Virus record (IMG/VR): IMGVR_UViG_3300050821_002050
Span: 4,626-68,625 of that record
Direction: 5' to 3' (one strand)
From: a virus
Length of the DNA: 64,000 nt
In this document: in pieces, positions 1,657 through 64,000 of the stretch
Layout of the letters: each line of letters opens with the position of its first letter
Numbering within the stretch: position 1 is the first letter of the stretch
The notes under the pieces: generated by a model
Database searches by the model: none
Told to the model about the DNA's origin: nothing
Seen by the model: only the letters and a program-made list of their open reading frames with translations
Position numbers and translations under genes: made by a program

Positions 1657-1951
1657 TCTTCAGAAAGAATTAACGGGTAAGATCACAGACTTCTTGTCCC
1701 AACACGGTGTTGACAGTGTGAAGACATCGGCGGGGACGGCATACTCGTCCGTCAAGTACAGTGCATCACTGGCAGACCCCGAAGCCTTCATGAAGTATGT
1801 GATCAGCAATCAGAACTGGGACCTGCTGGACCGCAAAGCCAACGTCACGGCTTGCCGCGCGTTCGTCGACCAACACAATACGCTCCCTCCCGGCGTGAAC
1901 CTCTCTTCCATCGAGACCCTTGGGGTGCGCAGCCCCACGAGTAAAAAGTAA
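1502..1951 (+). CDS. Conserved phage replication-module protein with coiled-coil N-terminus
   Basis: AGGAG RBS before GTG. Coiled coil followed by SVKTSAGTAY; position between helicase and SSB-like gene. Confidence 0.75.
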   Translation: MNVVSPQPSGAPEGSPSTHANVERLVGLYLVVREEIERLKEKHKKELEKAVDLQKELTGKITDFLSQHGVDSVKTSAGTAYSSVKYSASLADPEAFMKYVISNQNWDLLDRKANVTACRAFVDQHNTLPPGVNLSSIETLGVRSPTSKK

Positions 1952-1985
1952 CGGCCACCGTAACCCCAACAAGGAACCTCACACG

Positions 1986-3095
1986 ATGAGTAATCTTGAA
2001 CTGTTTAACGCCGCCGCCTTCAAGGGCACTGCCCCATCGAAGGTATTCCACGACATCGACCCAAACTCCGAGAGCCTCGCCGATGGTATCGGCCAGAGCT
2101 ACGGCATCCTTGGCTACAAGGGCAAAACATGGACGCTCCGCCTTCGTGGCGAGACCTTCCAGTTCAACCGACCGGATGACGGCACTCCCGCTCCGTTCCT
2201 CGACGTGATCATCCTGCGTCAGCTTCCGGTGAAGTCCAAGTCGTACTACCCGGCTGGCTCGTATCAGGAGGGCAACGTCGGTGTCCGACCGCTGTGCGCA
2301 TCGCTGGACGGCGTCACGCCCGACGTTGAGATTGCCACGCCGCAGAACAATGCCTGCGTCACCTGCGCTCGCAACGTGTTCAAGACGACCGCCGACGGTC
2401 GCAAGACCCGCGAATGCTCAGACTTCAAGCGTCTGGCTGTGCTGGTCCTCCCGAAGCTCACCATGCCGTTCTTCAATGGCAAGGCGCTGATGGAGCCGGT
2501 GTTCCTGCGCGTGCCCCCGGCCTCGCTGAACGATCTGTCGCTGTTTGGCGATACGATGTCCCAGCAGGGTTTCCACTACGCCACGTTCATCACGCGGATC
2601 GGGTTCAAGCCTGACAAGCCGCACCCTGTGATGTTCTTCAAGGCGATCTGTCCGCTGACGGACCAACAGGCTCCGATGGTCAGGCAACTGCGCGACGACA
2701 TGGCTTCGCACCGGATCACCGGAGAGGACATGCTCGCTCGACGACCGGGGCTTCCTGCGATCGCCGCCCCTGCGGCAGCAGCGCCGGTCCAGACAGCGCC
2801 GGTCCAGACAGCGCCCAACGTGGTGCAGATGCCCCCGCCGAACAAGCCGGCTGCCCCTGTGGCAACGGACGAGGGCTGGGGCGCGGCTGCGGCTCCGGTT
2901 ACGGCCACCGTAACCGGCACACCGCCGACGGATGATGACGGGTGGGGTGGCACTGCCACCGCAGCTCCGGCAGCTCCGATTGAAACTTCAGTTGCTCCGC
3001 AGCACCAACAGCCCACAGCAGCGGTAAGCGACACCATGACCGAGGAAGCGGACGACGATCTCGAAGCCCGCGTAGGTGCCCTCCTTCAGCGGTAA
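1986..3095 (+). CDS. Putative ssDNA-binding/annealing protein with Cys cluster and acidic tail
   Basis: AAGGA RBS and ATG at 1986. PLCASLDG..CVTC..EC Zn-like cluster, Pro/Ala linker, acidic C-terminus (EEADDDLE); adjacent to primase. Confidence 0.65.
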   Translation: MSNLELFNAAAFKGTAPSKVFHDIDPNSESLADGIGQSYGILGYKGKTWTLRLRGETFQFNRPDDGTPAPFLDVIILRQLPVKSKSYYPAGSYQEGNVGVRPLCASLDGVTPDVEIATPQNNACVTCARNVFKTTADGRKTRECSDFKRLAVLVLPKLTMPFFNGKALMEPVFLRVPPASLNDLSLFGDTMSQQGFHYATFITRIGFKPDKPHPVMFFKAICPLTDQQAPMVRQLRDDMASHRITGEDMLARRPGLPAIAAPAAAAPVQTAPVQTAPNVVQMPPPNKPAAPVATDEGWGAAAAPVTATVTGTPPTDDDGWGGTATAAPAAPIETSVAPQHQQPTAAVSDTMTEEADDDLEARVGALLQR

Positions 3096-3100
3096 GTCTT

Positions 3101-6100
3101 ATGTCTGACCCAATCGTTGAGCGCTTCATGCGCGCCGTGTTGCCTTGGCCGGGGGAAGATGCCCCCGGCTGGGTCAACCTGCACTACGACTTCGTGCCGC
3201 AACCCGGTAAGAAGATGCTCAAGATTGTGCCCGGTTGGGCGTTCAAAACCATGGACGGCTTCCAGTCGATGGTAGCCTTCGGTTTGGCACGCCACACTGT
3301 CTACAGAAATTTTTGGCAGTGTATGTCTCTGCAGAAGGACAACGCTGGGCCGAACAAGACCGGCAAGAATTACAGGGCCCTTCGCAAGAAGGATAACGCG
3401 CTGTCGGTCAAGTCCCTCTGGCTCGACCTTGATCTCGACCCCGCCGACCCGAAGAAGTACCCGGACGAGGCGACCGCCATGAAGGCGATCCTCGTATTCT
3501 GTAAGAAGTACGCCCTGCCTGACCCTAGCTGCATCGTGCACTCGGGGAACGGCCTCCACATGTACTGGGCCAACGTAGCGGTGATGACCGTCGACGAGTG
3601 GAGGCCGCTCGCGGAGGGCTTCAAGGCACTGCTGCTGAAGGAAGGTATCAAGATCGACCCAGTGTGTACTGGTGACGTGGCTAGGTTGATGCGTCTGCCA
3701 ACGACCTTCAACAAGAAAGACCTTGCCGACCCAAAGCCAGTGGTACTGCTGACCAAGAATATTATCGAGCACGATTTTTCCACCAAGCCATTTCAAGACC
3801 TGAAGCAATACGCAGTCATCGCGCCCCCTCCTGCTCCCAAGACCCAATCCGAGCATTTCGATGCCGCAGCCTTCAATGGCGCGAAGCCGAGCCCGGTGTT
3901 CAAGGGGATCGACAACAACGACAAGTTATCGGCTGGGCTAGAGCGGCTGGTTCACCCCAAGCCCGTATTCGACCAGTGCCCTATGTACGACGAGGCGCTG
4001 AAGACTGGCGGCAACGGCTACAATCAGGGCCTGTGGATGCTGCAAATCCTCGGTACCACATTCATGGAGGGCGGAAATGACCTCGCACACGCGATCAGCA
4101 AAGGGGACGCGCGCTACACCCCGGACGGTACGGACCAGATGTTCAGTCGCAAGATGGCTGACAGAGACAGCTTCGGACTTGGATACCCATCATGCGCCAC
4201 CTTTAAGGGCGCTGGCAGCAAGGCTTGCGAAGGGTGCCCGCTGCTCGCGAAGGGTAAGTCCCCGCTCAATCTAAGGCCATTTGTGCCGGTTACGGCCACC
4301 GTAACCTCCGCCACCCCGGCGCTCATCAATGGCACGGCTGACGACCCTGACGTATGGATGCCCTACGAAGAGGGCTTCGAGTTTAACGAGAACGGAGTGG
4401 TTTGTTCTGTGCATTCTCACACCGACAAAGAAGGCAACACGGATACATCGTCGATCCCGCTCTTTAAAGGATCGGTGCTGTCGGACTTTTGGATCAGTAA
4501 AGGTAGCCACCACGGTGAGGTGTGCCACTTCGTTTCATCTGCCGATAAGGGATGTCTGGTTCAAGTGGACCTACCTGTCGGCAATATTTTCGAACAGAGC
4601 TTTAAAAAATTTTTAGCTCTTGCCCGGGTGTTGCCAAATCCAAACGCACTGCCCAAAACAACGGAGACTTTTTTCGTGAGTGTCATAGAAAAATTGCGAG
4701 CAATCGCCGAAGCACAAACCGCCGTCCCATTTGGTTGGTACACCGAAAAAGGACAAATCAGAGGGTTCGCCTATGGTGGCAAGCTCTTCCTCGATGACAA
4801 GTCAGAACGGACGTGTGCCGGTGCTGACCCTGTCATCATGAAGAACTACCGTCCGCAGGGGAGCCTTGATCAATGGATGAAGGCGGCACGGTGTGTTACC
4901 GACCGTAAGCGCCCAGAACTCACAGTCATAATGCTCACGTCGTTCCTCTCGCCGCTGTTGCAGTTGGTAGGGCGATCGACGATCCTCTTCTCGGCTTTTA
5001 GTCCTGACAGCGGTGGCGGTAAAACCTCTGCGTACAAGGCCGGGCTGAGCGTGTGGGGACATCCGACCCTGACGAAGGGAACGGAGAGCCAGACGAAGAA
5101 CAACATCACGACGCAAATGAAGACTATCCGCAACCTTCCCTTCTACTGGGACGAGATCACGGACGACAAGTACCGGGAGATCGTGTGGAAAGTCATGCAC
5201 GAGGCGGATGGTGGCAAAGAAAAGGGCCGTAACCTTGACGGCCAGCGCACACAAGACGCGGGGACGTGGATGCTGGCGATGCATTATGCCTCCAACCAGT
5301 CGCTTCTACAGTTCTTGCGTAAGCACAACCCCACAACCTCTGCATCGGCAAACCGGGTCTTGGAGTGGGAAGTCAAGAACATTAGTGGCGTACCGGGCGA
5401 TCGCCCTCCGGGATGGATGCCGGATGCCGAGGCCACTACCCTTATGGACACCACCGAACGGAACTACGGTCTTATGGGTCTCAAGTACGCCCGGTTTTTG
5501 GCGGACAATCACGAGCGCATCACGGCGGAATGTATCGCTAAGATCAACGAGGTGGAGGAAATCCTGCAGACCGGCAATGCCGAGCGCTACTGGATTTGCG
5601 GTGTCGGGCTTATGGTACAGGCGGCTAAGTACGCTCTGGAGTTGGGCCTTGATGTTAACCCAGCCGAGATCGAGGAGTTCATGTTCAAGGTCTATCGAGA
5701 CAACTACAACTCCCGGGAGGAGTACTCCAGCGGTGGCGTCGTCGATCATAGCGAGGACGCTACTACTCGGTACCTCAAGAAACGCGAAGCGGAGGAGCGT
5801 GGAATTTGGTCCGATCATATAGCTCTCGGCAAGGGGAGAAGTGTGGCGAGACCGATGAACATCCTCAAGGGGCCGACGCAGCCGAAGAACACACAGGGTG
5901 GCGTCGAGTTCCGGTTTGCGCTGGAGCAACAGATGCTCTTTATAGCACAACGGGACTTCACCGCGTGGCTGGAAAGCGAAAAATTATCGGAACCTGAAAT
6001 CCGAAAAGGGCTCGCGAAGGTGTACGGCGACATTAAGGTGAAGAAGATCGCGCTGTTACGGGGATGGAAGCAGGACGCAGGACGCGAGTATGTCCTACAC

Positions 6101-6220: not shown

Positions 6221-6608
6221 CCTAGAGCGCCTCACCAAGCTCATGGCTATGACGACCAGTGACAAGGACCCCGAGGCCCTTGCCGCTGTTCGCATGGCCA
6301 ACAAGATGCTGAGCGGTTTAAAGATGACGTGGGGGGATGTCCTCAAGGTAGTCCCGCCCGAAGTGAAGATGACGATCTTCGCGCAGACACAACACGAGGC
6401 TAACTGGGATGAGCCCGCGTACCTCTCCGACAAGGTGCAGATCGACCTGATGTTCAAGTCGATCTACTCCGCGCCGAGGACCGGCGTCGAGGACTTCTGG
6501 CGGGTTGTCGATGGCATACACCAGAGCTACGTGACCCACGGCAGGCTCACTGCAGCCCAGTACAAGATCATCCGCCACTGCTACTCCCGAACCCTCAGAC
6601 ACGCATAG
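6201..6608 (+). CDS. Hypothetical protein, last gene of the + arm
   Basis: Coupled to the primase stop. N-terminus LTKLMAMTTSD..EALAA resembles common small phage proteins. Confidence 0.7.
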   Translation: MMPMPLDLERLTKLMAMTTSDKDPEALAAVRMANKMLSGLKMTWGDVLKVVPPEVKMTIFAQTQHEANWDEPAYLSDKVQIDLMFKSIYSAPRTGVEDFWRVVDGIHQSYVTHGRLTAAQYKIIRHCYSRTLRHA

Positions 6609-6822
6609 CCCAGTAGGTGCCGAGCACCGCGCCACTTACGGCAGCCGTAAGTAGCCACGGCTCGCGGGTGTATTCGACGATTACGACGCCTCCGAGCGCG
6701 AACAAGACACCGCTGCTAAGGCAGGCGCGAAGGATTTTACCATCACCTACGGCCTTCGTGTACTTCGCCCAGACGTAGTCGTAGACCACGGTGACGGCGA
6801 AGATGAGGAGCCATTTTATCAT
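6595..6822 (-). CDS. Small membrane protein (about 3 TM)
   Basis: Hydrophobic 75 aa, coupled to the upstream gene; contains one palindrome copy (LTAAVS). Confidence 0.65.
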   Translation of the reverse strand: MIKWLLIFAVTVVYDYVWAKYTKAVGDGKILRACLSSGVLFALGGVVIVEYTREPWLLTAAVSGAVLGTYWAMRV

Positions 6823-7893: not shown

Positions 7894-10800
7894 TTACCAA
7901 CCTTCGGTGGCCCGGTTTAGGATGTCTTCCCCGATGCCATAGCCGCCATGCTTTTCACGTAGACGGCTGTCCCGGGCATTAAGCTTCTGGGATTTCCGCT
8001 CCCAATTAGCGCCTGCGTCAGAGGGGTTTTTCACGTCGGCGGCTTGGTCCCGGATACCCTTGAGAGCGGCCTTGCCCACGCCTACCGGCCCCCCGGCATC
8101 CTCTGGGTTCTTCTTGTATGAGTTCGAGAGGGTGCCATAGGGGCTGACTGTGCCCCGCACCCAGTGCTCGGCCTCTTGCATACCTACCTTGAGCCCCGCA
8201 CGGATACGTCCCTGCCTACCGCTATTTTCTCCGAAGGCGTCACTCACATCGCCGGGCTCGATGATGTTCTTGCCCCGGTAGTCGCGACCGCTAATTGCCT
8301 CGATCAGCGTGCTGATCAGCGGCGTCACAGTGAACGTGGACCGTAGCGCGCTCATGGGGTCTTCCTTACCCTGTGACGCCCGGTAGAGATGGGACGGGAT
8401 CGAGACGGGACCGCGCCGGGTCTGGGAGGCATCCTCATTGCCGGTGATGAACTGCGCGAGCTTGTCCATCATTGGGTAGATGGCGAACGTGAGGAAGCCC
8501 ATTGCCAGCATCTTACCTGCCGCGTCGATGCGGTCGGCAGCGCTGCTCTTCGGATGGAAGGCATCCTTGATCATGTTCGCGTAGGCGTTCCACATGCCGT
8601 AGTGGTAGCGACCGAACGTGAACAGGTCGTTGCCACTCATCACCTTCGACAAGAAACGTCCAGCCTCACCGCTACTCATGATGCGGTTGGGCACTTGGTA
8701 ATTCGGGATGTCACGCTCAGCATGGATGATGGCTTGCTCCGTGGACATGCCCTTGCGCTCCAACTCCAGAATGCGCTGGGTCAGGAACACGTCGTTCGCG
8801 TGCCACATCATGCGTGAAGACCAATCATAAAATTTCTCGCCTAGTGCCTTCGGGTCGACGCCGATAATGTCGGCAACGCGACGCCAGCCCACGCCCTTTG
8901 GCCCGTTGGCCATCTCTGTACCGACACGACTGGCGAGACCTTGTGCGAAGTTGCGGGTGTTGACGCCGGGATAGATCAACCCCGCGCCGGAACGCATGAG
9001 ACGTTTCTGTAGGTCATCTTGGTTCCAGACGGACTTGATCGCCTTCGCCCCGTCGACGATGAGCGAGTGCAATCCTGCCGGGGTGATGTTGTCCCAGCCG
9101 CGACCGACGAACCAGTGAGTGCCGACGTTGGCGATGTGCGCGGTCGGCATCCAGAACAGCAAGCGTGTGACGTTGTGGTTCAGGTTGCGCCACCAGTCAT
9201 AAGTGTCGAAGCCTGACTTGGCGTAGCTGTCGAACACTTCCTTCATCTTCGGGTCCATGAAGATCGGCTTGCCGTCCGCGCCCTTCAGGTTGGGGAAGTC
9301 GGTCTGCTTCCAGCCCCGGTCGTTCGCGAGCTTGCCGTCGGTGGTGGACATCTTCCCGAACTCAGGCGAGTTGATGATCTTGTTCAGGAGCTTCAGGTTG
9401 CGGAAGCGCTGCCCCATGAGCGAGTTGGTCAAGAATGCAGAGAGCGCCGCGTTGTGCTGGTACTTCAACATCGCTGGCGTGTTGCCGAGACCGCGTGCGT
9501 GCTTCTCCTTCTCGGAGGCCATGGCCTCGCGCATCGTGAAGGTCTGCTTCGCGCCGGTCTTCGGGTCGGTGTAGACGTAGGGCTTGTTGGCCTCGAACTC
9601 GAACTTCGGGTCCCTGATCTTCTGGCTCTTGCCGTTGCGCCAGATGTTGTAGCCGTTGTCGCGCTCTTGGATGATATGACGGTGGCCCGATCTATCTTCC
9701 AGCGCGAAGTAGTTACGGTTGTTGGACATCGAGGCGGACACCGTGAGACCGTTATATTCGGGGCTCGTCGGGTCGTCCTTGTTCTTGAGGAGGTTGTACT
9801 CGCTCGTTTCACCGTCAGAGAGATGGGAGATATGGTCGTCAACGTCGCGCGCCGCGTTGTTAGGCGCGAAGATGTCCCCGCCTTCCTTGTAGAGCTTGTT
9901 CTCATCGAACACCTCCTTGAGGTGCTCGTTGTAGAGCCGCTGATCTTCGGCGGACAGGCTCTCAAGGTTGGTCTTGCCCTTCTGCTTGCCCGGCAGATCA
10001 ACGTGAGCGCTGTCGGCGTCGCGAGCTTCGAAGATGCGCCGCTGTTGTGCGGTCTTCGATTTGGCGTCGGGCTCCTTGCTGTCGTGCCACATCGCATCGC
10101 TCGCTTGGAACAGCGCGGTGTTCGCAGCCTTGTTGGTCTGCTCGTTGGTGTGGAACATCTTCTGCAGGTCACGCAGCCATTTGCCGTGGTTGTTCAGCTC
10201 GTCCGCCGTCAGTGAGCGGGAATAGCTGCTGTCCCGGTGGGAGATATTCGCGCCCACCTTGCTGCCAGACCACTTGGAGTTCAGGAAGCGCTTCATCAGC
10301 GCCTTCACGTCGTGGCCGATCTGGTTGATGTTGAGCGACGCCTTCTCGTCGGTGCCGAACTCCTTCGCGAGGCGAGCCAGTTCGTTGGCCCTGCCGATGG
10401 CATTGCGCTTATCGTCGGCTGCCTGCGCCGCCTCGTACTTGGCCCGCTCCTCCGGGGTGACGTTCATCTTGGCGCGGAAGCGAGCTTCTTCGAGCGCTGC
10501 TGCACGCTCCTCGGCTTCTCTTGCCTTCTTGGACGACTTCAGCGCTTCATCTTCGCCCTCCTTGGTCACATCCTTGGTCTTCTTCGGACGCTCGGCATTG
10601 TCGGCCTTGTTCTTGATGGCCTTCTCGACCACGCCCTCCGCGATCGCCTCGGGGTCGACCTTGGTGTGCTCGAAGTCGCCTTCGGGGTAGTTCTTCGCCA
10701 GCCACTCCTTGTCGCGATTGCGCAAGGCATCATAGGGATCAGGACGTACCTCGGTGCCTTCTTTATAGTTCTGCCCAAGCCACTCTTTCTCCTCGCGCTC

Positions 10801-51083: not shown

Positions 51084-51263
51084 GCTTTTCGCGCCTAAGC
51101 TGTTCGGCATATGCGCGATGTTGCGCGAGTTTTAGGAGATGTTCACGACGGGCCACGACCTCGTCATCTTCGTGGTTCGGGTCAAACATATCGAGGCCCT
51201 AGCACGGTATCACGGTCGACAGGTGGTCAATATTGATCACAAAACAGAGAAAGGAGCAGTACC

Positions 51264-51665
51264 ATGGGAAGTTTCTTCAACCAGATGGACAGGAAATACA
51301 AAGCGGAGTGGCTCAAAGCGCTGCGCTCTGGCGAGTACCAGCAGGCACGAGGCAAGCTCTACGATGGCACAGGCTATTGTTGCCTCGGAGTGCTCTGCAA
51401 GGTGGCAGGCTCGAAGTTCGTGATCACCAACCCGGACGATGTGAGACACGAGAGCGACTATCCGGTGTACGAGCCCACCAAACTCGGCAACGACCAACCC
51501 GGCGATGCAGAGAGCCTCAACGACCACGGCTTGCAGATGTTCGGCTTCGATACTGAAGTGCAGGACATGCTTGCAGCCAAGAACGATGGCAATCCTGCAG
51601 CAACGCCACCCAAGCCGATGCAGTCCTTCGCTGAGATCGCTGACTGGATCGAGGAGAACCTATGA
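51264..51665 (+). CDS. Conserved phage hypothetical protein
   Basis: AAGGAG RBS; WLKALRSGEYQQ..YCCLGVLC..SFAEIADWIE. Confidence 0.75.
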   Translation: MGSFFNQMDRKYKAEWLKALRSGEYQQARGKLYDGTGYCCLGVLCKVAGSKFVITNPDDVRHESDYPVYEPTKLGNDQPGDAESLNDHGLQMFGFDTEVQDMLAAKNDGNPAATPPKPMQSFAEIADWIEENL

Positions 51666-54447: not shown

Positions 54448-54563
54448 TGAGAAGCACCCGCACCCGTAGGCTCAAACGCAGACATAAAACCCAACTCGCT
54501 GCAATCGAGCGACGACAGAGCATCATCAAGTCTCTGTATCGCCTGTACTACAGCGGGCGCTGA
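54447..54563 (+). CDS. Arg-rich 38-aa peptide
   Basis: TGATG coupling; hand translation MRSTRTRRLKRRHK.. Confidence 0.45.
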   Translation: MRSTRTRRLKRRHKTQLAAIERRQSIIKSLYRLYYSGR

Positions 54564-54708
54564 TAGCAGGCAGGCCCGCGCTGGAGGTAGCTGGTACCTA
54601 TCTCCTTCTGCGACTGCCTGCTGGGCGACATGGTGGTCTAGCTCCCTGCCATGTCGCCCACTTCTCTTCACGGAGCATCTGTAACCCAACGAAAGGAGAC
54701 TATCACCC

Positions 54709-55869: not shown

Positions 55870-55985
55870 GTTAGTCTGCAGGGACCTGATTTAGCAATGT
55901 CAGTAGCAGACTAGGCATGTGAGTGGCGGGGTGTTCGACCCAACAACCCCGCCACTTACGGCCACCGTAACCGAAAGGAGCAAAC

Positions 55986-56285
55986 ATGGGCCAACGTACA
56001 TTCACAATCGAGTTGAAGGTCGACTACGCTGACCGCAACAAGGACGAAGAGATCAAGAAAGCCTGTATCGCTGCAGGTGTGCATCTCTTTGCTACCGCAC
56101 AGTTACTGTCGGACATTCCCCGTACCACCGACATCGCTGTTTACACCGACGACAATTTCATTCCTCGCAAGCAAATACTTGCGCAAGAGGACATCATTCG
56201 CACGGGCAATGCTGCCCTACCGAGCACCCAAGAGGCGGATGGGAACTCGGCTGAAGACTTGGCCGCCGTGATAGGAGACCTATGA
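55986..56285 (+). CDS. Hypothetical protein between the AAA and VWA genes
   Basis: GAAAGGAG RBS right after a palindrome. Confidence 0.7.
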   Translation: MGQRTFTIELKVDYADRNKDEEIKKACIAAGVHLFATAQLLSDIPRTTDIAVYTDDNFIPRKQILAQEDIIRTGNAALPSTQEADGNSAEDLAAVIGDL

Positions 56286-57595
56286 CCCCAATGCCAGTCA
56301 ATCCGGCGTTGCAGCAGGGTAGTACTACCGTTCTCGGAAGCGAGATCGAGGAGATACTCCCCTGTGGGCTAACGCCAGCACAGAAGAAGGAATGGCAGGG
56401 CACCATGAGCTTGATGCTCTGGACGTGCCCCGGCTTCCGTCATCTGTTCTACAAGCTTCTGAACAACAACGACGGTGAATATGGCTGCGTTCCTACGCAG
56501 TCAGTGCCCGTCGCTGCCACCGATCAGAAGAACATCATGATCAACCCCGGTCCCTTCTTCCATAACTACACGATGAAGGAGCGGGTGTTCATCATGGGGC
56601 ACGAAGTGGTGCACAACATCTACAACGACGTGGACTTCCTGCGTCGCTGCGCAATCTCTGGCACGGTGCCAATGTCGGACGGTACGACGCTGCCGTTCCA
56701 CGAGAGTACCATGCAGAAGAGCATGGACTTCCGCATCAATGCGCTGTTGAGAGACAGCAACATTGGTAGCGTCCCCAAGGACGCACACATCGACGATACC
56801 ATCGCAAAAGCAAACGATGGCGTGGTCGATGTTTACAAGCGTGTCTATGAGGATGAGGAACAGGGTGGTCCCAAGACTGGCCCGCGTGGCAATCCGGGTG
56901 GCTTCGACCTGATCCTCAAACCCAGTACCTCGACGCCCAACAAGAACGCTCCCAACCCGCAGCAGTGGGCAGTGGAGATCAAGAAAGCCCAGATGCTCGA
57001 AGCCATGAAGGCACAGGGCAGAGGGAAGGGCGCATTGCTGCAGATGTTCGAGGATGTGCTGAACCCGGTAGTTCCGTGGACAGACCATATCCGAGGCATC
57101 TTCAACAAGAAGGTAGGCTCTGGATCATTCAACTGGAAGCGGCCTAATCGCCGGGCGATCCTGCAGGACATCTTCCTGCCTTCGAAGAGCGGCAACGGTG
57201 CAGGCTGGGTGGCGTGTTGGGGCGATAGCTCTGGCTCTGTCATCGCACTGGTCAACAAGTACCTGCCCGAACTGAAGGGCATCCTTGAAGACTGCCAGCC
57301 CCGTCGTCTCACGATCGTGTGGTGCGACGACGGCGTACAGCGTGTCGATGAGCTGGAAGAACCCGGCGACATCGAGATTATCAAGGGCGAGGGTGCTCCG
57401 GGTGGAGGCGGGACTAGCGTTGAGCCTGTCTTCGACTGGATCAAGCAGCAGCAAGGCGAACTACCCGAGGTGTTCATCGCGTTCACCGATGGGTATGTCG
57501 ACTTCGTTGATCCCCCGCCGATACCCAACATCATTTGGTGCATGACCACGGATGTGGTAGCTCCCTATGGTGAAACAGTGAGGATCAACACATGA
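56282..57595 (+). CDS. DUF2201-type metallopeptidase plus VWA-like protein
   Basis: VAATD, HEVVH (HExxH), WKRPNRR, DSSGS (MIDAS), GGGGT, FTDGY. Confidence 0.85.
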   Translation: MTPMPVNPALQQGSTTVLGSEIEEILPCGLTPAQKKEWQGTMSLMLWTCPGFRHLFYKLLNNNDGEYGCVPTQSVPVAATDQKNIMINPGPFFHNYTMKERVFIMGHEVVHNIYNDVDFLRRCAISGTVPMSDGTTLPFHESTMQKSMDFRINALLRDSNIGSVPKDAHIDDTIAKANDGVVDVYKRVYEDEEQGGPKTGPRGNPGGFDLILKPSTSTPNKNAPNPQQWAVEIKKAQMLEAMKAQGRGKGALLQMFEDVLNPVVPWTDHIRGIFNKKVGSGSFNWKRPNRRAILQDIFLPSKSGNGAGWVACWGDSSGSVIALVNKYLPELKGILEDCQPRRLTIVWCDDGVQRVDELEEPGDIEIIKGEGAPGGGGTSVEPVFDWIKQQQGELPEVFIAFTDGYVDFVDPPPIPNIIWCMTTDVVAPYGETVRINT

Positions 57596-57699
57596 AGAAG
57601 ACTACCAAACGTACTCTTCCGCCGCGCTCGAAGGCGCATAACCTCGCCATCAGCAAGGCGCTGCGGAAGTTCCATCGAAAGAAGAACAAGAAACGCTGA
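57592..57699 (+). CDS. Lys/Arg-rich 35-aa peptide
   Basis: ATGA coupling; MKKTTKRTLPPRSK.. Confidence 0.5.
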   Translation: MKKTTKRTLPPRSKAHNLAISKALRKFHRKKNKKR

Positions 57700-57860
57700 T
57701 TAAGTTCACGCTCCCGCAACGCTACAGAGAGCGATGCAAGTCCAATGCGGTGGACGGACTTGTTTCAAGTGAGATGCGACAGTAACGCGACACCCGGGAA
57801 GTCAGAAGCTCACGAGGCCCGGCATTTACTTACGGCAACCGTAACCGAAAGGAGCTGAAC

Positions 57861-58034
57861 ATGCCTAAACGCAAAAAGCACGCGACCGACGAACTAGCGG
57901 CGCAAATTTCCCATGCCCTTGACAGCCTCGTGGAGGATGGCGAACTCATCACGGACGGTAAAGGCAACTACCGCTTTCCCGGCAGCACCCACAACGTAAT
58001 CACCCCGCCCGATGACGAAGAGGAAAGGAGCTAA
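57861..58034 (+). CDS. 57-aa hypothetical protein (not in the ORF track)
   Basis: GAAAGGAG RBS after a palindrome; MPKRKKHATDEL..LVEDGELITDGKGNYRF. Confidence 0.65.
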   Translation: MPKRKKHATDELAAQISHALDSLVEDGELITDGKGNYRFPGSTHNVITPPDDEEERS

Positions 58035-58036
58035 CC

Positions 58037-58207
58037 GTGCCAGAACCACAATGGGAACCAAACGTAAAGTACGTGTGCAATGCCGCTATCTACGCGGCGA
58101 TCCACAACGAGCTTACTGAGAACGGACAGCAGGCTCGTGTCATCCAGATCGACGGCAACGAGATCGTCTTCGAAGTCCAACCACGAAAGGAGGTGTACCT
58201 TGGCTAG
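58037..58207 (+). CDS. 56-aa hypothetical protein (not in the ORF track)
   Basis: AAGGAG RBS and GTG start. Confidence 0.55.
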   Translation: MPEPQWEPNVKYVCNAAIYAAIHNELTENGQQARVIQIDGNEIVFEVQPRKEVYLG

Positions 58208-58913
58208 AGGCGGAGAATGGAGCGGATGCCCATTGGGCAACAGTGAGATGGAGAGCGCGATCAGCTTCATCCACCAGAAGCAGAAGACCGCAGTAACCTT
58301 ACTCACCGAATATAAGTTCAGTCGGTATAAGACCATCGAGATGCTCTTCTCGCCGGATACGATCGCGAAAGCGACCGCTGCGAACGGCATCGTCAAACCG
58401 GACTACATGAGCAAGAACTACGAGCTGAACGGCGTCTGTCAGTTCATGGGCAACCTCGGCATCTCCTACATGGGCTGCAAGTGCCTGCCCATCAGAGCAC
58501 ACAAGCTGGAGCTACAGCAGAACGTCACTCCGCTCCTCCTATACCTCAAGGAGGTCGAGAAAGTTTACCTGCAATATGAAGAGGTTAAGGGTGTCCTGCG
58601 CTGGCTTAATAAAAACGCAACCATTGGCGGGATACGGTACTACTGGCCGTCGATCATGAAAGTTGCCCCCAAGGACAGCGTCTTCGCCAACATGGAAACC
58701 GCCCCCAAGCGTTTCGACACACCGTCAATGCTGCACGAGTGGATGACTGCGCTTCGCAATAGTGCAGTCACTGTCGCGAGCATGACACTGCAGCCCTCCG
58801 ACGCTGAGCCCAGACCATTCACCGAGATGTCGGTTAGCTGCTACAAAAGAAAAGTAGTTGTGAGTGCTTCACAACTACACTATGAAACAGACAGCATGTC
58901 CTTCAACGTGTGA
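58200..58913 (+). CDS. Hypothetical protein
   Basis: GGAGGT RBS before TTG at 58200, in frame with the 58080 ORF. Confidence 0.65.
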   Translation: MARGGEWSGCPLGNSEMESAISFIHQKQKTAVTLLTEYKFSRYKTIEMLFSPDTIAKATAANGIVKPDYMSKNYELNGVCQFMGNLGISYMGCKCLPIRAHKLELQQNVTPLLLYLKEVEKVYLQYEEVKGVLRWLNKNATIGGIRYYWPSIMKVAPKDSVFANMETAPKRFDTPSMLHEWMTALRNSAVTVASMTLQPSDAEPRPFTEMSVSCYKRKVVVSASQLHYETDSMSFNV

Positions 58914-58917
58914 GCCA

Positions 58918-60873
58918 ATGACTTTACTGCCACCATCTCAGAACCTGTTGATCTTCGACTGCGAGACGTACTTCGACAAGGAGTACTCTCTCAGCAAGAT
59001 GCCAACTCCAAACTACATTTTGGACGACAAGTTCGAACTACAGATGGTGGCAGTGAAGCTCAACAATACCCCACACCAGATCATCCCCGGTCCAGACTTC
59101 CCAGCCTACCTCGCCAACATCGACCCCAAAGTTACGACCACCGTAAGTTTCAACTCCCCCTTCGATAATTCGATCTTGTTCTGGCGCTACAATTGGCTGC
59201 CTCACCGAATGGTCGACGCGATGGGAATGGCCAGAGCCCTCTGGCAACACGACCTCCCCGATCTTCGCCTCTCTTCCGTCGCCCAATATCTAGGGCTCCC
59301 CCCCAAGGGCAACGCCTTGGTGGCAGTCATGGGCATGAGGTACGACGAAATCCGCGCTGGCGGCCTCTGGGACACGTTCTCACAGTACGCTCTTCAGGAC
59401 AATTTCATCTGTGAGCAGGTATTCCTGCGCGCCTTGCAGTACAGCAAATTCCCCAAGTCCGAACTAGAGCTGATGGACATGGTCCTGCGGACCACCATCG
59501 AGCCGAGCTTCAAATGCAATTTCGATATGCTAGAGCAGCACCATCAAGATGTGGTAGCTGCGAAGCAGAAGCTCTTGGAAGACGCGAACATGGTCGATCG
59601 CAAGATCATCATGAGCACGAACAAGTTCAAAGAGTTCCTAGAGAGCAAGGGCGTCGAAGTGGCAATGAAGGTCTCGCCGACGACCGGCAATGAGACACCT
59701 GCCTTTGCTAGGACGGACGCCTTCATGGATGAGCTGCAGGACCACCCCGATCCCGAGGTGAGTGCTGCAGCGTGCGCGCGCCTTGCGTTCAAGAGCACGC
59801 TCGAAGAGACGCGCACGGCCAAGTTTATGTCGATTGCGAAATTGAACTGGCCCGCGTGGGTCAAGGGCAACATCCCCATGCCCCTGCGCTATGGCGCGGC
59901 CCATACCCATCGCCTTGGCGGCGACTGGAAGATGAATTGCCAGAACATGCCGACGGTGCGCGGCTCCAAGGGCAAGAGCAAGCTTCGTCTCAGCCTTGAG
60001 GTAGAGCCTGACGAGATGGTGATAACGTGCGACTTGAGCCAGATCGAGGCGCGTCTCGCTGCGTGGTTCTGTGGCTGTACGACGCTGGTCAACGAGTTCG
60101 CACAGAACAAGGACCCCTATTCGCAGCTTGCAACGGACATCTTCGGCTATCCGGTGAACCGCAAGCTGAAGGATGCTGCAGGCAAGGTGATCTTCGAGAT
60201 CGAGGGCTTCATTGGCAAGACGGGCATCTTGGGTCTAGGTTACGGTGCCGGTAAGGACAAATTTGACAGTATGGTTATCGCCAGTGCCCGCACCATGAAG
60301 CTCGACATCTCAGGGAAATATTCCCGGGCAATCGGTGATAAGGCAGTGGAGACCTACAGACGGAGGTACTCGCAGATACCCCAGATGTGGTCCGTACTGA
60401 ATGGATACATCGCTACCTATTGGTTGTCGGGGTCTGCCAGTGTCCGTGTGGGACCGGTGGAGATCAGCTATGGCTGCGTCAAGCTGCCGAACGGGCTGGC
60501 TTTGAACTACGCACAGCCCCGATCACAGACCAATGCAGAGACTGGCCGCACCGAATACATCTATCGGTACGGCAAGGAGTGGCATCGTCTCTACGGAGCG
60601 AAGCTACTGGAAAACATCATCCAAGCGCTCGCGCGTATCGTGGTGATGAATGCAGCGTTGCGTATTCGTGCACGAACAAGAAAAGAGCTTGGCGTTGAGT
60701 TCAAGTTCAAACTGCAAGCGCATGACGAGCTTGTATACATAGTGCCGCACAACTTGGTTGACGCGGTGAAAAAGATCGTGCATGAAGAAATGAAACGCCC
60801 GCCGTCATGGGCACCGACTGCGCCGATCGACGCGGAGTTGGGTCAGGGCAAATCCTACGGAGAAGCAAAGTGA
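58918..60873 (+). CDS. polA: DNA polymerase family A with 3'-5' exonuclease domain
   Basis: Exonuclease motifs FDCET, FNSPFD, YALQD; motif A DLSQIEAR; motif B KTGILGLGYG; motif C AHDEL. Confidence 0.92.
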   Translation: MTLLPPSQNLLIFDCETYFDKEYSLSKMPTPNYILDDKFELQMVAVKLNNTPHQIIPGPDFPAYLANIDPKVTTTVSFNSPFDNSILFWRYNWLPHRMVDAMGMARALWQHDLPDLRLSSVAQYLGLPPKGNALVAVMGMRYDEIRAGGLWDTFSQYALQDNFICEQVFLRALQYSKFPKSELELMDMVLRTTIEPSFKCNFDMLEQHHQDVVAAKQKLLEDANMVDRKIIMSTNKFKEFLESKGVEVAMKVSPTTGNETPAFARTDAFMDELQDHPDPEVSAAACARLAFKSTLEETRTAKFMSIAKLNWPAWVKGNIPMPLRYGAAHTHRLGGDWKMNCQNMPTVRGSKGKSKLRLSLEVEPDEMVITCDLSQIEARLAAWFCGCTTLVNEFAQNKDPYSQLATDIFGYPVNRKLKDAAGKVIFEIEGFIGKTGILGLGYGAGKDKFDSMVIASARTMKLDISGKYSRAIGDKAVETYRRRYSQIPQMWSVLNGYIATYWLSGSASVRVGPVEISYGCVKLPNGLALNYAQPRSQTNAETGRTEYIYRYGKEWHRLYGAKLLENIIQALARIVVMNAALRIRARTRKELGVEFKFKLQAHDELVYIVPHNLVDAVKKIVHEEMKRPPSWAPTAPIDAELGQGKSYGEAK

Positions 60874-61331
60874 TCAGACCCACAACCTTCTACTTAGCGG
60901 GCCCAATGTCGGGCATACCACAATTCAATTTCCCATTGTTCAACGCTGTTGCCCGCATCTTGCGTGACCACGGCCACACTGTTTTTAACCCCGCCGCAAA
61001 AGACATTGAACGTCACGGCGGGGTTGATATTTCTGCAGGCAATGACAACGGCGACGTTGCGAAGTCCGCAACCGAGCACGGCTTCTCACTACGAGAGGCA
61101 CTGGGCGACGACACCCACTTCATCTCACTTAAGGCTAGTGGGATTGTCCTCCTGCCCGGCTGGGAGTTTAGCAACGGCACGATGGCCGAGTGGTTCTTGG
61201 CCCGCGCTATCGCTAAGGACCCGAACAATAAGGTGCCGTTCCGGTTCGTCTATGTGCAGCGGTTTGACGACACTGTCATCATTCCCGGCATCGCCACTTT
61301 CACGTTAGAGCCTGCAGTGGCTGCAGCGTGA
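60870..61331 (+). CDS. DUF4406 / nucleoside 2-deoxyribosyltransferase-like protein
   Basis: GTGA coupling; YLAGPMSGIPQFNFPLF, VFNPA, LLPGWEFSNGTMAE. Confidence 0.8.
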   Translation: MIRPTTFYLAGPMSGIPQFNFPLFNAVARILRDHGHTVFNPAAKDIERHGGVDISAGNDNGDVAKSATEHGFSLREALGDDTHFISLKASGIVLLPGWEFSNGTMAEWFLARAIAKDPNNKVPFRFVYVQRFDDTVIIPGIATFTLEPAVAAA

Positions 61332-61365
61332 GCGTGGCACTCCCCTACCTAGTATTCGGGATCAT

Positions 61366-61896
61366 TTGTATCGGCCTCGCACTGTGGCTGAGCAAATGAT
61401 CCTCCCCCTTCACCTACAACACAAAACAAGGATGTTTTCCATGGAGCGACGAGTACCACGAGTGGTTCACGACGGAGACCCACACGGATTTGATGAGACC
61501 CATAGCCCCGCGCGCGTTCTCGAAATTGTGCCGCCCGACACGCGCCGGATGACGGAGCGGATGACCTCTGCCGAGCGCAAGGAATACCCAATCACGGAAG
61601 GCATGCTGGACTATTTCCCCGACGCTTGCGCCTACGTGGCGCATGTTTCGTTTCTGGGCAACGCCAAGCATAACCCCGGCGAGAAGATGCACCATGCCCG
61701 AAGCAAATCGACCGATGCTGCCGACTGTGTGGGCCGGCATCTGGCCGAACGCGGTGGTTACGACGTTGTCGTGATCGACGGCGTGGAGCGCCGGATCAGA
61801 CATACTGGAGCGCTGGCGTGGCGTGCCTTGGAGCTTCTGCAGAAGGAACTGGAGCAGGACCTTGGGCTCCCGCTTCCCCGAGGCGCGCGAAAGTAA
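61366..61896 (+). CDS. dATP/dGTP diphosphohydrolase-like protein (DUF5664 type); start uncertain
   Basis: GMLDYFPDA..VAHVS..GNAKHNPG..RSKSTD..C..RHL..AWRAL..LQ. Confidence 0.7.
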   Translation: MYRPRTVAEQMILPLHLQHKTRMFSMERRVPRVVHDGDPHGFDETHSPARVLEIVPPDTRRMTERMTSAERKEYPITEGMLDYFPDACAYVAHVSFLGNAKHNPGEKMHHARSKSTDAADCVGRHLAERGGYDVVVIDGVERRIRHTGALAWRALELLQKELEQDLGLPLPRGARK

Positions 61897-61908
61897 CGGT
61901 GGCCGTAA

Positions 61909-62325
61909 GTGAACACCCGCAATGACGAGATGCGTCGCGGTCGAGAGACGCTGGAGAAGAACCGCCGAGCGAGCGACCTAGAACGGTTGAACGCCTGTGG
62001 AAAAGTAGCGATCAGGCTGGAGAACTTGCCCGGGGGACCGTCGATCTCTGGCTATCTCGCGACCTTCGTGGTGGATGGAGTGGACGTATGCCAAGAGCGG
62101 ACGCAAGACCCGGCCTACCCAAGCGATCGGGTTATGGCCTTCGTGAACTTAGCGATCGCTGCCACGAGTGGTTTCGCCGACGTGCCGCCCCCAACCCCCA
62201 CCCACAAGGTGAGTGCCAAAGCCTACAACAAACGCCTCCAAGAGCAAAACCAACATCGCTGGAACACGAACGACAGTTGGAACGCCTCGCGAAACTTGAA
62301 GCCCAACACAGGAAACGGCAACTAG
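61909..62325 (+). CDS. Hypothetical protein (FPS-motif family)
   Basis: GTG start abuts a near-palindrome; YPSDRVMAFVNL. Confidence 0.65.
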   Translation: MNTRNDEMRRGRETLEKNRRASDLERLNACGKVAIRLENLPGGPSISGYLATFVVDGVDVCQERTQDPAYPSDRVMAFVNLAIAATSGFADVPPPTPTHKVSAKAYNKRLQEQNQHRWNTNDSWNASRNLKPNTGNGN

Positions 62326-62327
62326 TC

Positions 62328-62774
62328 ATGGCTGTGGCGCAACACCCGTTGACCGAACAACAGAACCACATGTTGCTGGAAGCCTTCAACCAGCAGCGAC
62401 GTATTGGGCTTCTCAGCCAGTGGGTAGAGCTGGGCTATGTCGTTGTGGAGGAAGTCGCCAAACTCAACGACTACCGCATCGTCTGTGCCGGTGTGGTGTT
62501 CCGAGAGCCGAAACGGAAATTCCCTTCTGAAGAGTTGATTGCCAAGCTTGGCCTCGCAGTCAACTCAGGAGCGGTCTCGGACGAAGAGCGCAAATACAAT
62601 CGCATGCTCACACGGCGCATGGCGGAGCACACCATCGACGATCTGTGTCGGATCAAAGAAGACGTTTATCATCAAATTGCAGAGGCTACCCGCCAGATCA
62701 ATTTAACGACGGCACTACCTCCCTACATACTCGAAAGCGAAAGGATCAAAGATGACGAAGAGCCCAATGGATAA
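62328..62774 (+). CDS. Hypothetical protein (FPS-motif family)
   Basis: ATG at 62328; FPSEELIAKLGL. Confidence 0.65.
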   Translation: MAVAQHPLTEQQNHMLLEAFNQQRRIGLLSQWVELGYVVVEEVAKLNDYRIVCAGVVFREPKRKFPSEELIAKLGLAVNSGAVSDEERKYNRMLTRRMAEHTIDDLCRIKEDVYHQIAEATRQINLTTALPPYILESERIKDDEEPNG

Positions 62775-63318
62775 GATGACATTCCCCGGCATCAATCACG
62801 GTGTCGGCGCGCAGGGTGCGCAGCAATCGAAGCCTGACCCGAGGGACCCGAGGAATTGGCCGGCCATTCCCCCTCAACATCATCCGAGTGTGAACCCCGG
62901 CCCGCCGTACACCTATTTGAACGTGAGCGACATCGAGCGACTGGCGAAGGCTGGCGTGCAGATCAACGTTGGGACGGTTGTCCCGCAGCAGGACCAGTTT
63001 AACGTCCTGTCCCGAGGTAACGATGACCGCAACGTGACTGAGTTGGACAGTCTGACCACCATCGGTAACACTTTATCAAAGGCGATTTGGTATCGGTGGC
63101 TCCGAGCGCGCCGTGCACTCAGGGACCCCGATTTCGGCGACATGCTGCAGATACGCCCTTTCTCGCTGATGGCGAACCAGTACGGTGACACGGTGCATGT
63201 GTCGGTCCATCCGACCAACGAAAATCGACCACCATTCGAACTAACCGACGATGCGATCATCTTCCCGAGCGATGCTCTGATGGCGAAGATCGCGCTATGG
63301 GAAAAGGACAATCCGTGA
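62752..63318 (+). CDS. Hypothetical protein (FPS-motif family)
   Basis: FPSDALMAKIAL; start may be 62767. Confidence 0.65.
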   Translation: MTKSPMDKMTFPGINHGVGAQGAQQSKPDPRDPRNWPAIPPQHHPSVNPGPPYTYLNVSDIERLAKAGVQINVGTVVPQQDQFNVLSRGNDDRNVTELDSLTTIGNTLSKAIWYRWLRARRALRDPDFGDMLQIRPFSLMANQYGDTVHVSVHPTNENRPPFELTDDAIIFPSDALMAKIALWEKDNP

Positions 63319-63491
63319 AGAAGCCCAAGAAACCGGTGCGGCGGCGACCTGTGATGACGTTTATAAGACGGCAACAGATACTCGCGTTCTATGTCCTCTG
63401 CCGCGACGGGGCTTACATTGGTCGCGAGGACGAACGGGATGCCGTGCAAGAGATGCTCTTCGCGGCCAGCAAGGCAGGGGTAATCAAATGA
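63315..63491 (+). CDS. Small basic hypothetical protein
   Basis: GTGA coupling after an AAGGA RBS. Confidence 0.5.
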   Translation: MKKPKKPVRRRPVMTFIRRQQILAFYVLCRDGAYIGREDERDAVQEMLFAASKAGVIK

Positions 63492-64000
63492 AGATCGCGG
63501 GGCTGGGCAGTACGAGCTTGTCGACGAAGGTGTGGAGTTGGTCTTACTCGAAGTTGAAAAACTACGAGAGTTGTCCGCGTAAGCACTACGAGATCGACAT
63601 CGCCAAGACGGCAGCGGAGACGCAGAGCACCGACCCGAACTCACCGCTGGTGTGGGGTAACCGTGTGCATGACGCGCTCAAAAACGCACTTACGGCAGCC
63701 GTAAGCCCGCTCCCGGATGAATTTGCCGCTTTTCAGCATTGGGTTGACAGAGTGCTGGCCCGTCCGGGCGAACTGCTGGTGGAGCAGAAGTACGCGATCA
63801 ACGAGCAGTTTGAGCCACGCGCATGGTTTGACAAGGACGTGTGGTGCCGAATGATCGGCGACGTAGTGAAGATCGACACGCCTTTCATCAATAAGAAGGA
63901 CGGTAAGCGTTGTCAGCTCGCGCTGGTTCTGGACTGGAAGACCGGCAAGGTGATCGACGACCAAATCCAACTGATGCTGATGGCGCAGGCGCTGTTTTCG
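63488..64000 (+). CDS. PD-(D/E)XK (RecB/Cas4-like) exonuclease, 3' truncated; not in the ORF track
   Basis: Hand translation WSYSKLKNYESCPRKHY..GNRVHDAL..VEQKY..IGDVV..LDWKTGK..QLMLMA. Confidence 0.85.
   Translation, partial: MKIAGLGSTSLSTKVWSWSYSKLKNYESCPRKHYEIDIAKTAAETQSTDPNSPLVWGNRVHDALKNALTAAVSPLPDEFAAFQHWVDRVLARPGELLVEQKYAINEQFEPRAWFDKDVWCRMIGDVVKIDTPFINKKDGKRCQLALVLDWKTGKVIDDQIQLMLMAQALFS

Follow-up and report, generated by a model that had tools for sequence, protein, structure and literature searches.

A palindrome, TTACGG-N3-CCGTAA, recurs along the 64,000-nucleotide stretch of the IMG/VR virus record IMGVR_UViG_3300050821_002050 that was analysed here (bases 4626–68625 of a 68,625-bp single-contig phage genome; hereafter the window). 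Comparison with related phages showed that this palindrome is the present lineage's dialect of a dispersed site, probably one for DNA recognition, found across the phage family. The site is selected at the DNA level and read base by base, its positions are conserved among relatives, its dialects co-vary with lineage, and its presence correlates with that of a block of genes on the replication side of the genome. DNA-level selection would hold about one copy per 3–4 kb, with sites settling in spacers, in protein linkers and wherever the peptide V/L-T-x-x-V-T/S can be tolerated. The duplex site would be read by a symmetric, phage-encoded dimer, a reading to which we assign a probability of roughly 0.55.

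A palindrome selected at the DNA level

When TTACGGNNNCCGTAA was searched with up to one mismatch, 20 places were found in the window (15 perfect and five one-mismatch), compared to 0.06 on average, and never more than one, in 100 dinucleotide-preserving shuffles of the same sequence. All 15 perfect copies listed in a first-pass annotation of the window were recovered at the same starts. That annotation had counted four one-mismatch copies where five are present, the additional one lying at 60240 (TTACGGTGCCGGTAA, within the DNA polymerase). The whole 68,625-bp genome contains 18 perfect copies.

Shuffling of synonymous codons within each called open reading frame (ORF), a control that had been suggested together with the first-pass annotation, gave a mean of 0.097 and a maximum of 1 copy in coding sequences, compared to the 12 observed (300 shuffles, with crude ORF calls making up 88% of the genome). 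The main-frame hexapeptides that would permit the site ([FLIV]T[VADEG][SPTA]V[IMTNKSR]) occur ten times in the proteome, and all ten carry it, as does the lone peptide permitting the other open frame; the third reading frame is closed because it contains TAA. The earlier reading of the window sites in coding sequences as V/L-T-x-x-V-T/S was confirmed. Eleven perfect copies had been placed inside genes, a count that stands with the reservation that two of them lie in doubtful ORFs (6595–6822, minus strand; 50631–51083, plus strand). Outside the window, one copy occupies the other open frame (GYGVRN) and another provides a TAA stop codon. That selection acts on the DNA rather than on the peptide, as originally proposed, is backed by the codon shuffles and by the orthologue alignments described below.

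The constraint extends beyond the twelve fixed bases. Among the perfect window sites, position –2 is a purine (R) and positions –1 and +1 are G or C (S) in 15 of 15, and position +2 is a pyrimidine (Y) in 14 of 15, while strict complementarity of the flanks holds in only 6 of 15 sites for –1/+1 and 8 of 15 for –2/+2. Within the centre, position 7 is Y and position 9 is R, each in 14 of 15. Given these class constraints with few strict pairs, the recognised unit is a degenerate 19-bp dyad. The 19-bp symmetry noted before is therefore retained as a dyad of base classes but not as strict pairing, and the central three nucleotides, previously described as varying, are not free. The consensus may be written RS-TTAC-x-G-YNR-C-x'-GTAA-SY, in which x/x' would be G/C in the present phage, C/G in most of its relatives and, in one clade, T/A. 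The dyad symmetry and base-by-base reading of the site are supported; a dimeric protein, as originally suggested, may bind or cut it.

Dialects, conserved positions and distribution in related phages

The nearest named relatives are the Rhizobium phages RHph_TM27A, TM27B, TM29 and TM3_14A (portal identity 58%), and IMG/VR holds 57 loci with portals 65–91% identical. Of ten complete or near-complete IMG/VR relatives, nine match the pattern TTAC-N7-GTAA 9–25 times each, compared to 0–3 times for the reversed control pattern. Eight IMG/VR relatives carry TTACCG-N3-CGGTAA (hereafter the CG dialect) in 7–21 perfect copies each, and the CG dialect was also found in 18 of 18 further loci reached via the gene c53767, which is considered below as a candidate for the reader. 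TTACTG-N3-CAGTAA (the TG dialect) is carried by G004, with six perfect copies, and by its near kin. The locus L120 (81% nucleotide identity) has the same GG dialect as the present phage. RHph_TM27A contains 26 copies of TTACC-N6-GGTAA, 12 of which are TTACCT-N4-AGGTAA, and none of the motif of the present phage. In the complete relative G006 (64,454 bp; portal identity 69%), the only match is a chance one that is not palindromic, and no other dyad is enriched. An IMG/VR scan with GTTACGGNNNCCGTAAC gave, among the matches listed, only single-copy chance ones and no relatives, and no enriched palindrome was found in the first 50 kb of the distant Rhizobium phage RHph_N3_13.

The dialect is uniform within each genome. 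Compensatory double variants, in which both arms change together, are essentially absent (one in the present genome, itself a CtrA box, and 0–1 in each of nine relatives typed), and the arm positions are therefore read by identity and not by pairing alone. The spacing is strictly N3 in 9 of 10 genomes typed; the tenth, G009, has seven N2 and seven N3 sites. The comparison of related phages that had been recommended at the outset thus revealed sites kept in place, with synonymous co-variation and turnover; the co-varying dialects are a fact that the first-pass annotation had not seen.

Positional conservation is clearest in the orthologue alignments. The linker of the primase reads GTTACGGCCACCGTAAC in the present phage and GTTACCGCGACGGTAAG in G001. 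In an 86-aa gene preceding the head genes, nine of the eleven relatives keep the VTVAVT site in their respective dialects; G005 (IMQAMA) and the motif-less G006 (ALKALS) are the exceptions. The local dialect is likewise found at shared positions in the N-terminus of the candidate TerS, in the spacer before the SSB-like gene and in the spacer after the ATPase gene. The polymerase peptide TTTV(T/S)FN is present in all PolA orthologues except that of RHph_TM27A, and is kept in the motif-less G006, but the Val codon GTA is used only by site-bearing genomes, and the Thr codons are ACG..ACC in the present phage, ACC..ACG in CG genomes and ACT..ACA in G004. The main frame (xTT ACN GNN NCN' GTA Axx) places each dialect base at the third position of a codon, so that a dialect can be switched without amino-acid cost, which probably explains the frame bias. 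Turnover is illustrated by the fibre peptide VTATV(D/S), which occurs in most relatives, whereas the site itself is found only in the present phage and G004.

Along the present genome the gaps between sites are more even than random (coefficient of variation 0.52, compared to 0.93 ± 0.19; P = 0.002), and no two sites lie closer than 1361 bp (P = 0.0006). In G001, G002 and RHph_TM27A, too, the closest pair is further apart than expected (P = 0.005–0.03). A quasi-periodicity of ~5.6 kb in the late arm was rejected, as relatives do not reproduce it, and only the avoidance of close pairs is taken as real. Site density is higher in the early arm and in spacers. Site orientation is independent of gene direction, and the sense-oriented centre is only weakly biased.

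The candidate reader and competing explanations

The leading candidate for the reader is encoded by c53767, the first gene of a replication-side block:

53767–54447, plus strand: c53767, 226 aa, all-alpha, no known family; candidate site reader
54709–57595, plus strand: ATPase (PHROG 1297), ORF 55986 and a DUF2201_N + DUF2201 VWA protein; rest of the core block missing in G006

All 11 motif-bearing genomes checked, among them RHph_TM27A (where EVB29_028 is the c53767 orthologue), carry the genes for c53767, the ATPase and the VWA protein, which are absent from G006. That genome, by tblastn of the ORFs, lacks one contiguous 5-kb block comprising c53767, the MoxR-like ATPase, ORF 55986, the DUF2201 VWA gene and c58080. 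The c53767 protein was modelled as all-alpha with a predicted local distance difference test (pLDDT) value of 87.8, and has a pI of 8.9. Its two-copy model scored 0.80, compared to 0.09 for the best control (contact agreement at least 88%, pLDDT at least 87), where the score mark is one attained by 20 of the 30 homomeric pairs of known structure and by 1 of the 23 single chains; the model supports a putative homodimer. In a specificity scan, all conserved proteins were examined for residues that the eight CG genomes share without exception and that differ in the present phage or in G004. Among proteins with more than ~30 CG-invariant positions, c53767 has the highest share of changes (11 of 46 in the present phage and 8 of 46 in G004), compared to 13 and 16 of 126 in the primase and 14 and 6 of 401 in the portal. 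Helix 135–150 of c53767 is close to DDAANT..AR.QLKR in 18 of 18 CG loci, but reads DSADNV..ARAQLAH in the present phage and YDAQNC..ARAQMKI in G004. A c53767 member of the present subfamily that keeps DDAANT adjoins a CG-dialect site. The protein is specific to this phage group and its wider metagenomic family (301 clusters at 50% identity).

On these grounds we tentatively propose that c53767 may be the reader. It had been named as one of four candidates, and gains comparative support from block co-occurrence, the dimer model and the helix, although no DNA-binding fold was recognised in it. Two others, 47282 and 48899, have no detectable homologue in G001, G002, G004 or RHph_TM27A at E 1e-3, nor in a search at E 1e-4 that also covered G009 and G006; the fourth is discussed below.

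Several observations weigh against a phage-encoded dimer, or against c53767 in that role. The spacing is mixed between N2 and N3 in G009, L235 and L236, and between N5 and N6 as the spacer separating the TTACC arms in RHph_TM27A, and such mixtures would not be tolerated by a rigid dimer. Regular spacing of sites is not significant in most relatives. The co-occurrence of block and sites rests on a single motif-less lineage that lacks one contiguous block, and is thus effectively one event and weak evidence alone; what ties the ATPase, ORF 55986 and the VWA protein to the sites is correlation only. N4-like and jumbo phages, moreover, commonly carry the ATPase/VWA pair, and we know of no such palindrome in N4-like phages. 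For c53767 itself, no match was found in Pfam, PHROG or NCBIfam, Foldseek against the PDB gave nothing at E ≤ 0.001, a PDB profile search gave nothing better than E 0.37, and the best VIA-align hit (Z 6.9) covers only a 49-residue two-helix hairpin and is uninformative. For the GG and TG dialects there is one c53767 sequence each, so that the helix differences may reflect ordinary drift between lineages. The two switched lineages have only one changed position in common, and residues 18–36, where some of the changes specific to the present phage are located, form part of the predicted dimer interface. Further searches were equally silent: neighbours of c53767 in the ESM Atlas are unnamed viral clusters, with the named ones (DUF3102, a Streptomyces phage repressor family, the ParB helix-turn-helix (HTH)) below a useful score, ten longer members of the family have no Pfam domain, tblastn of c53767 against phage records gave no match at E 0.01, and c58080 had no usable match in the ESM Atlas.

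Autoregulation of c53767 by the site was rejected as a general feature, as a site lies within ~70 nt upstream of the gene in 4 of 11 genomes (the present phage, G001, G010 and RHph_TM27A), plus L239. A conserved TTTGCCCGACGCGGC-like stretch is located at 53680–53700, ~60–90 nt upstream of the c53767 start, with orthologous stretches in G002, G003, G004, G005 and G008; it could represent either the conserved C-terminal end of the preceding ORF or a regulatory element.

Among the alternatives, an unlikely one that nevertheless accounts for several features is a single-stranded DNA hairpin at the replication fork, read on either strand by the AEP-type primase-helicase as a dispersed lagging-strand priming site, in the manner of plasmid ssi signals or N4 hairpin promoters. 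Sites that are orientation-free and over-dispersed, with no long gaps, a central Y-N-R that holds on both strands, and a loop or spacer whose length varies in G009, L235, L236 and RHph_TM27A all agree with it. The primase is moreover the least conserved core protein (28–45% identity) and ranks second in lineage-specific changes, with six positions changed in both lineages. However, within genomes no compensatory stem variants occur, so that identity and not pairing is read; the flanks are constrained by base class and not by pairing, the core folds only weakly as single-stranded DNA (in 4 of 6 sites folded, –3.8 to –4.6 kcal/mol with z about –1.1 to –1.6), and G006 retains the primase yet lacks the sites.

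A host-encoded reader, or protection against a host nuclease, with dialects that track hosts, appears rather improbable. The genome is clearly shaped by host systems: GANTC (the CcrM or HinfI-type site) is absent from the 68.6-kb genome, compared to ~250 expected, and CtrA boxes are enriched. No DNA-binding fold was seen in any phage candidate, and the loss in G006 could be due to a host switch. However, the dialect changes between phages with ~80% identical portals, and the phage gene-block correlation would play no part; we also know of no alphaproteobacterial regulator whose site matches the palindrome. Use of the site as a restriction or modification target was rejected because the site is enriched, not avoided.

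The fourth of the earlier candidates is a receiver-less winged-helix protein (44334–44912, minus strand; 192 aa, with an N-terminal HTH-like segment and a C-terminal OmpR/CtrA-type winged helix), which might read TTAC-N7-GTAA as an orthogonal CtrA-like circuit. It matches Trans_reg_C (E = 1.7e-9), its best NCBIfam match is the CtrA DNA-binding domain (E = 5.8e-7), the two sites have equal length and the same outer 4-7-4 geometry, and one perfect CtrA box lies 5 bp from a palindrome (17546–17580). The protein nevertheless follows CtrA boxes and not the palindrome: 9 of 10 relatives carrying the gene have 1–6 boxes (none in G009) and RHph_TM27A has 0, while RHph_TM27A, with its 26 palindromes, has no Trans_reg_C domain in six frames and no tblastn match, and G006 has a homologue (41% identity) and no palindrome. 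Seven inner positions are fixed in the palindrome and free in CtrA boxes, and at CG-invariant positions of the protein 0 of 30 are changed in the present phage. We therefore see little chance that it is the reader.

Similarly small is the chance of an RNA-level hairpin, lying near ribosome-binding sites (RBSs) and within mRNAs and acting in processing, stability or translational regulation. In ten genomes, 24 of 151 sites lie at most 40 nt upstream of an RBS and start in the sense direction (random 6%; p = 1.4e-5), with a modal site-to-start distance of 15–16 nt, and a hairpin-site-RBS order is seen at 49168, 55956 and 57830. However, several of the 15–16 nt cases are orthologues of one gene, and enrichment near starts is the pattern expected of any element that favours unconstrained spacer DNA. 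Among 57 one-mismatch sites in the ten genomes, sense G.U pairs (19) and A.C pairs (16) show no wobble preference, in a count that rests on a crude assignment of transcription direction and includes orthologous, hence non-independent, sites. Compensatory variants are lacking, most sites lie inside coding sequence, and Rfam gave 0 matches at gathering score over the whole window. Intrinsic terminators were rejected, as no T-run follows the sites and 9–11 of 15 lie inside ORFs.

Finally, a selfish or mobile palindrome (REP- or MITE-like) spread by in-frame insertion or gene conversion would explain why the same 18-bp unit recurs and why two intergenic copies share 10 bp more (CCGAAAGGAG), but is very improbable, since the aligned cases contain no six-codon insertions and the sites thus arise by substitution within existing peptides (for example the fibre peptide, the polymerase TTTV and the portal tail), many are intragenic, and no transposase, HUH or RAYT-like family was found among ~50 window proteins scanned against PHROGs, Pfam and NCBIfam.

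Sites, genome context and known parallels

The individual sites in the window are as follows:

1949–1963: one-mismatch (TAACGGCCACCGTAA); first three bases form the TAA stop of ORF 1502–1951; the SSB-like gene starts 22 nt downstream (ATG at 1986)
2899–2913: perfect; C-terminal linker of the SSB-like protein, VTATVT
4290–4304: perfect; primase-helicase linker, VTATVT; position kept in relatives with the CG dialect
6636–6650: perfect; junction of the converging plus and minus arms, in a doubtful 75-aa ORF
12147–12161: perfect; gene of the 1872-aa virion protein, VTATVS
17566–17580: perfect, intergenic; 5 bp from a perfect CtrA box (17546–17560), upstream of gene 16076–17500 (minus strand)
24509–24523: perfect; gene 24342–24641 (minus strand), LTATVT
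26438–26452: perfect; tail-fibre gene, VTATVS
32389–32403: perfect; 86-aa gene 32270–32530 (minus strand), VTVAVT
37989–38003: perfect; C-terminal tail of the portal, VTAPVS
43825–43839: perfect; gene 43199–43975 (minus strand), the TerS candidate of the first-pass annotation, LTATVS
49168–49182: perfect, intergenic; between a terminator-like hairpin with T-run and an RBS
50866–50880: perfect; doubtful ORF 50631–51083, VTAAVS
53725–53739: one-mismatch (TGACGGTCACCGTAA); 27 nt upstream of the c53767 start
55956–55970: perfect, intergenic; between the ATPase gene and ORF 55986, in the order hairpin-site-RBS
57830–57844: perfect, intergenic; after the VWA gene and followed by a CCGAAAGGAG RBS identical to that at 55956
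59132–59146: one-mismatch; DNA polymerase, VTTTVS, with Thr and Val codons matching the lineage dialect
60240–60254: one-mismatch; conserved GYGAGK motif of the DNA polymerase, possibly a chance match
61894–61908: one-mismatch (TAACGGTGGCCGTAA); first three bases form the TAA stop of ORF 61366–61896, with a GTG start directly after
63690–63704: perfect; RecB-like exonuclease gene, LTAAVS

The context of the site at 1949 holds perfect sites in G001, G002, G005, G003 and G008, and the hairpin-site-RBS arrangement at 55956 recurs in G001 (36564) and G004 (37110). An identical CCGAAAGGAG lies 3' of the palindrome at 55971–55980 and 57845–57854, in each case with a start codon 15–16 nt past the site and a GC-rich hairpin before it.

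PHROG and Pfam scans of the proteins describe a podovirus-like phage. The minus-strand late arm encodes the portal, large terminase, major head protein, internal virion proteins, collagen-like fibres and a 1872-aa protein without a match. The plus-strand early/replication arm encodes an SNF2 helicase, an AEP/D5-type primase-helicase, a PolA-type polymerase, a RecB-like exonuclease, the ATPase (PHROG 1297) and the DUF2201_N + DUF2201 VWA protein. No PHROG or Pfam match was found for the 1872-aa (7894–13512, minus strand) and 625-aa (13512–15389, minus strand) proteins, which are presumably ejected virion proteins; the orthologue of the former in RHph_TM27A has 2307 aa. PHROG scans of ten small early ORFs gave only one family, of unknown function. 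The product of 61366–61896 (plus strand) has a below-threshold Pfam match to the dATP/dGTP diphosphohydrolase N-terminal domain (E = 1.9e-5, 25 bits, compared to a cut-off of 27), a lead towards a MazZ-like nucleotide pyrophosphatase. A GT2 glycosyltransferase gene with TPR repeats (34512–36638, minus strand) adjoins the collagen-like fibre genes (25032–26546, 27284–28084). In G006, long runs of a collagen-like 9-bp GGCCAGTAG coding repeat were found, and GGCC-N5-GGCC was rejected as a dispersed motif of that genome, being a product of the collagen-like 9-bp coding repeats. In RHph_TM27A (MN988461.1), EVB29_077, annotated as 'putative integrase', is an orthologue of the primase-helicase (28% identity over ~1100 aa), and the attL/attR features of that record therefore deserve a renewed check.

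Perfect CtrA boxes (TTAA-N7-TTAA) occur five times in the present genome, compared to 0.2 expected (17546, 33281, 40185, 46929 and 47147). Some of them head late operons, and the palindrome lies beside only 1 of the 5 CtrA-box promoters. Each of G001–G007 contains 0–3 GANTC sites and RHph_TM27A contains 0, compared to 26–90 in G008, G009 and G010. The absence of GANTC and the enrichment of CtrA boxes fit an alphaproteobacterial host. Megablast of 20 kb against 50,697 phage records gave no near-identical phage. The stretch is present in only four soil-metagenome runs, in all of them as contigs, and no RNA run is listed for it. Over 44001–64000 these are identical short contigs, in which no ends, nicks or informative variants were seen at the sites.

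The closest phage parallel is the 17-bp dyad repeat 5'-TGTTCGGNNNCCGAACA of the Cluster O mycobacteriophages (the Corndog group) (PMC4351075; PMC6439249). Its authors predicted a dimeric binder with a role other than transcription initiation, and left the function as unknown (PMC4351075). Both are dispersed inverted repeats with a 3-bp centre in apparently lytic phages of 65–70 kb, both have copies in spacers and genes that are denser in the non-structural arm and independent of promoters, and neither phage group has an integrase or a ParAB system, for the present phage as judged from the proteins scanned. The present site also agrees in form, with arms of 6–7 bp and a 3-bp (effectively 1-bp) centre in both spacers and coding sequences, and in a copy number of tens, although the 18 copies of the present genome are fewer than the 34 counted in Corndog. 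The sequences differ, however, and tblastn against Corndog revealed no shared protein (best E 0.012; Corndog has no Trans_reg_C). The coding-frame rule is strong in the present phage, unlike Cluster O. Dialects, positional conservation and wobble co-variation are invisible in Cluster O because its five genomes are near-identical.

Outside phages, the KorB-OB system of the IncP plasmid RK2 has about a dozen short palindromes over ~60 kb, some at promoters and others far from any, which are read by a globally acting dimer with a partner ATPase. KorB belongs to the ParB family, whereas c53767 has no ParB or KorB family or fold match (the ParB HTH neighbour in the Atlas has a template modelling (TM) score of 0.33–0.37), and RK2 is a plasmid, whereas the present element is an apparently lytic phage with no partition genes among the proteins scanned.

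The first-pass annotation had considered a role like that of the stoperators of Cluster A mycobacteriophages, which are asymmetric, transcription-oriented sites of a temperate-phage immunity repressor (PMC4351075). As described there, stoperators are likewise many copies of a short site across a phage genome, inside and between genes. The present sites are instead perfect palindromes, orientation-free and found in both arms, most of them away from promoters, and general scans of ~50 window proteins revealed no repressor or integrase family, which makes that role unlikely. The CtrA box TTAA-N7-TTAA described in alphaproteobacterial phages (PMC9437464) shares the 15-bp length and 4-7-4 geometry, and the present phage has both five such boxes and a CtrA-like protein. 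The palindrome differs from it by one base per half-site, has its inner seven positions fixed, and is genome-wide and not clustered at promoters.

In the hairpin promoters of N4-type phages, a stem of 5–7 bp with a 3-nt loop directs the virion RNA polymerase to early genes. The stem and loop sizes fit, but the present sites are found in both arms and inside late genes, with no orientation signal. The DNA uptake sequence (DUS) dialects of Neisseriaceae, and the Chi and uptake signal sequence (USS) words, are over-represented, are tolerated in coding frames and have a cognate reader, serving as a self tag. As asymmetric sequences of cellular chromosomes they act in uptake or recombination, for which no machinery was identified in the present phage, so that the analogy would be one of logic only, although DUS, too, may be likened to the palindrome in forming lineage-specific dialects of one or two bases in a genome-wide word.

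If a phage-encoded dimer does read the duplex site, its binding would mark the whole genome in a lineage-specific way, through a dispersed network of operators or self tags comparable to KorB-OB or the Cluster O repeats, and individual promoters would not be controlled. Since all permissive positions are used, close pairs are avoided, sites are independent of orientation and promoters, the system is dispensable in one lineage and its specificity diverges between close relatives, a genome-wide, lineage-exclusive mark fits better than gene-by-gene regulation. Such a mark could serve silencing, replication or organisation of the genome, specificity of packaging or the exclusion of related phages. 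A bolder and more doubtful proposal is a new self-tag system, in which a c53767 homodimer of new fold would read a 19-bp dyad about every 3 kb, one recognition helix would co-evolve with the wobble bases at all sites, and lineage-exclusive marking would serve replication, genome organisation or the exclusion of co-infecting relatives. If true, this would parallel, in phages, the DUS dialects or KorB networks, and might follow the same logic as the Cluster O repeats.

The literature searched contained no account of the palindrome in this phage family, did not name RHph_TM27A and assigned no function to the Cluster O repeat. Dispersed dyad repeats in lytic phages were already described for Cluster O in 2015; the dialects, wobble-position co-variation, positional conservation, natural loss variant and candidate reader are new. 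The sites provide an unusually clean case of selection on DNA over codons, with the rare Val codon GTA and dialect-matched Thr codons in a conserved polymerase motif, and a whole set of cis-acting sites has changed specificity without change in the proteins that carry them. The family supplies a dozen diverged genomes, three or four dialects differing by one base pair per half-site, a loss relative and the cultured RHph_TM27A (with Rhizobium phaseoli N831 as host), which turns an old curiosity into a testable problem with few reader candidates and predicted specificity residues. If the reader is confirmed, the c53767 family would add to the DNA-binding proteins a new fold, one with a wide occurrence in soil viromes.

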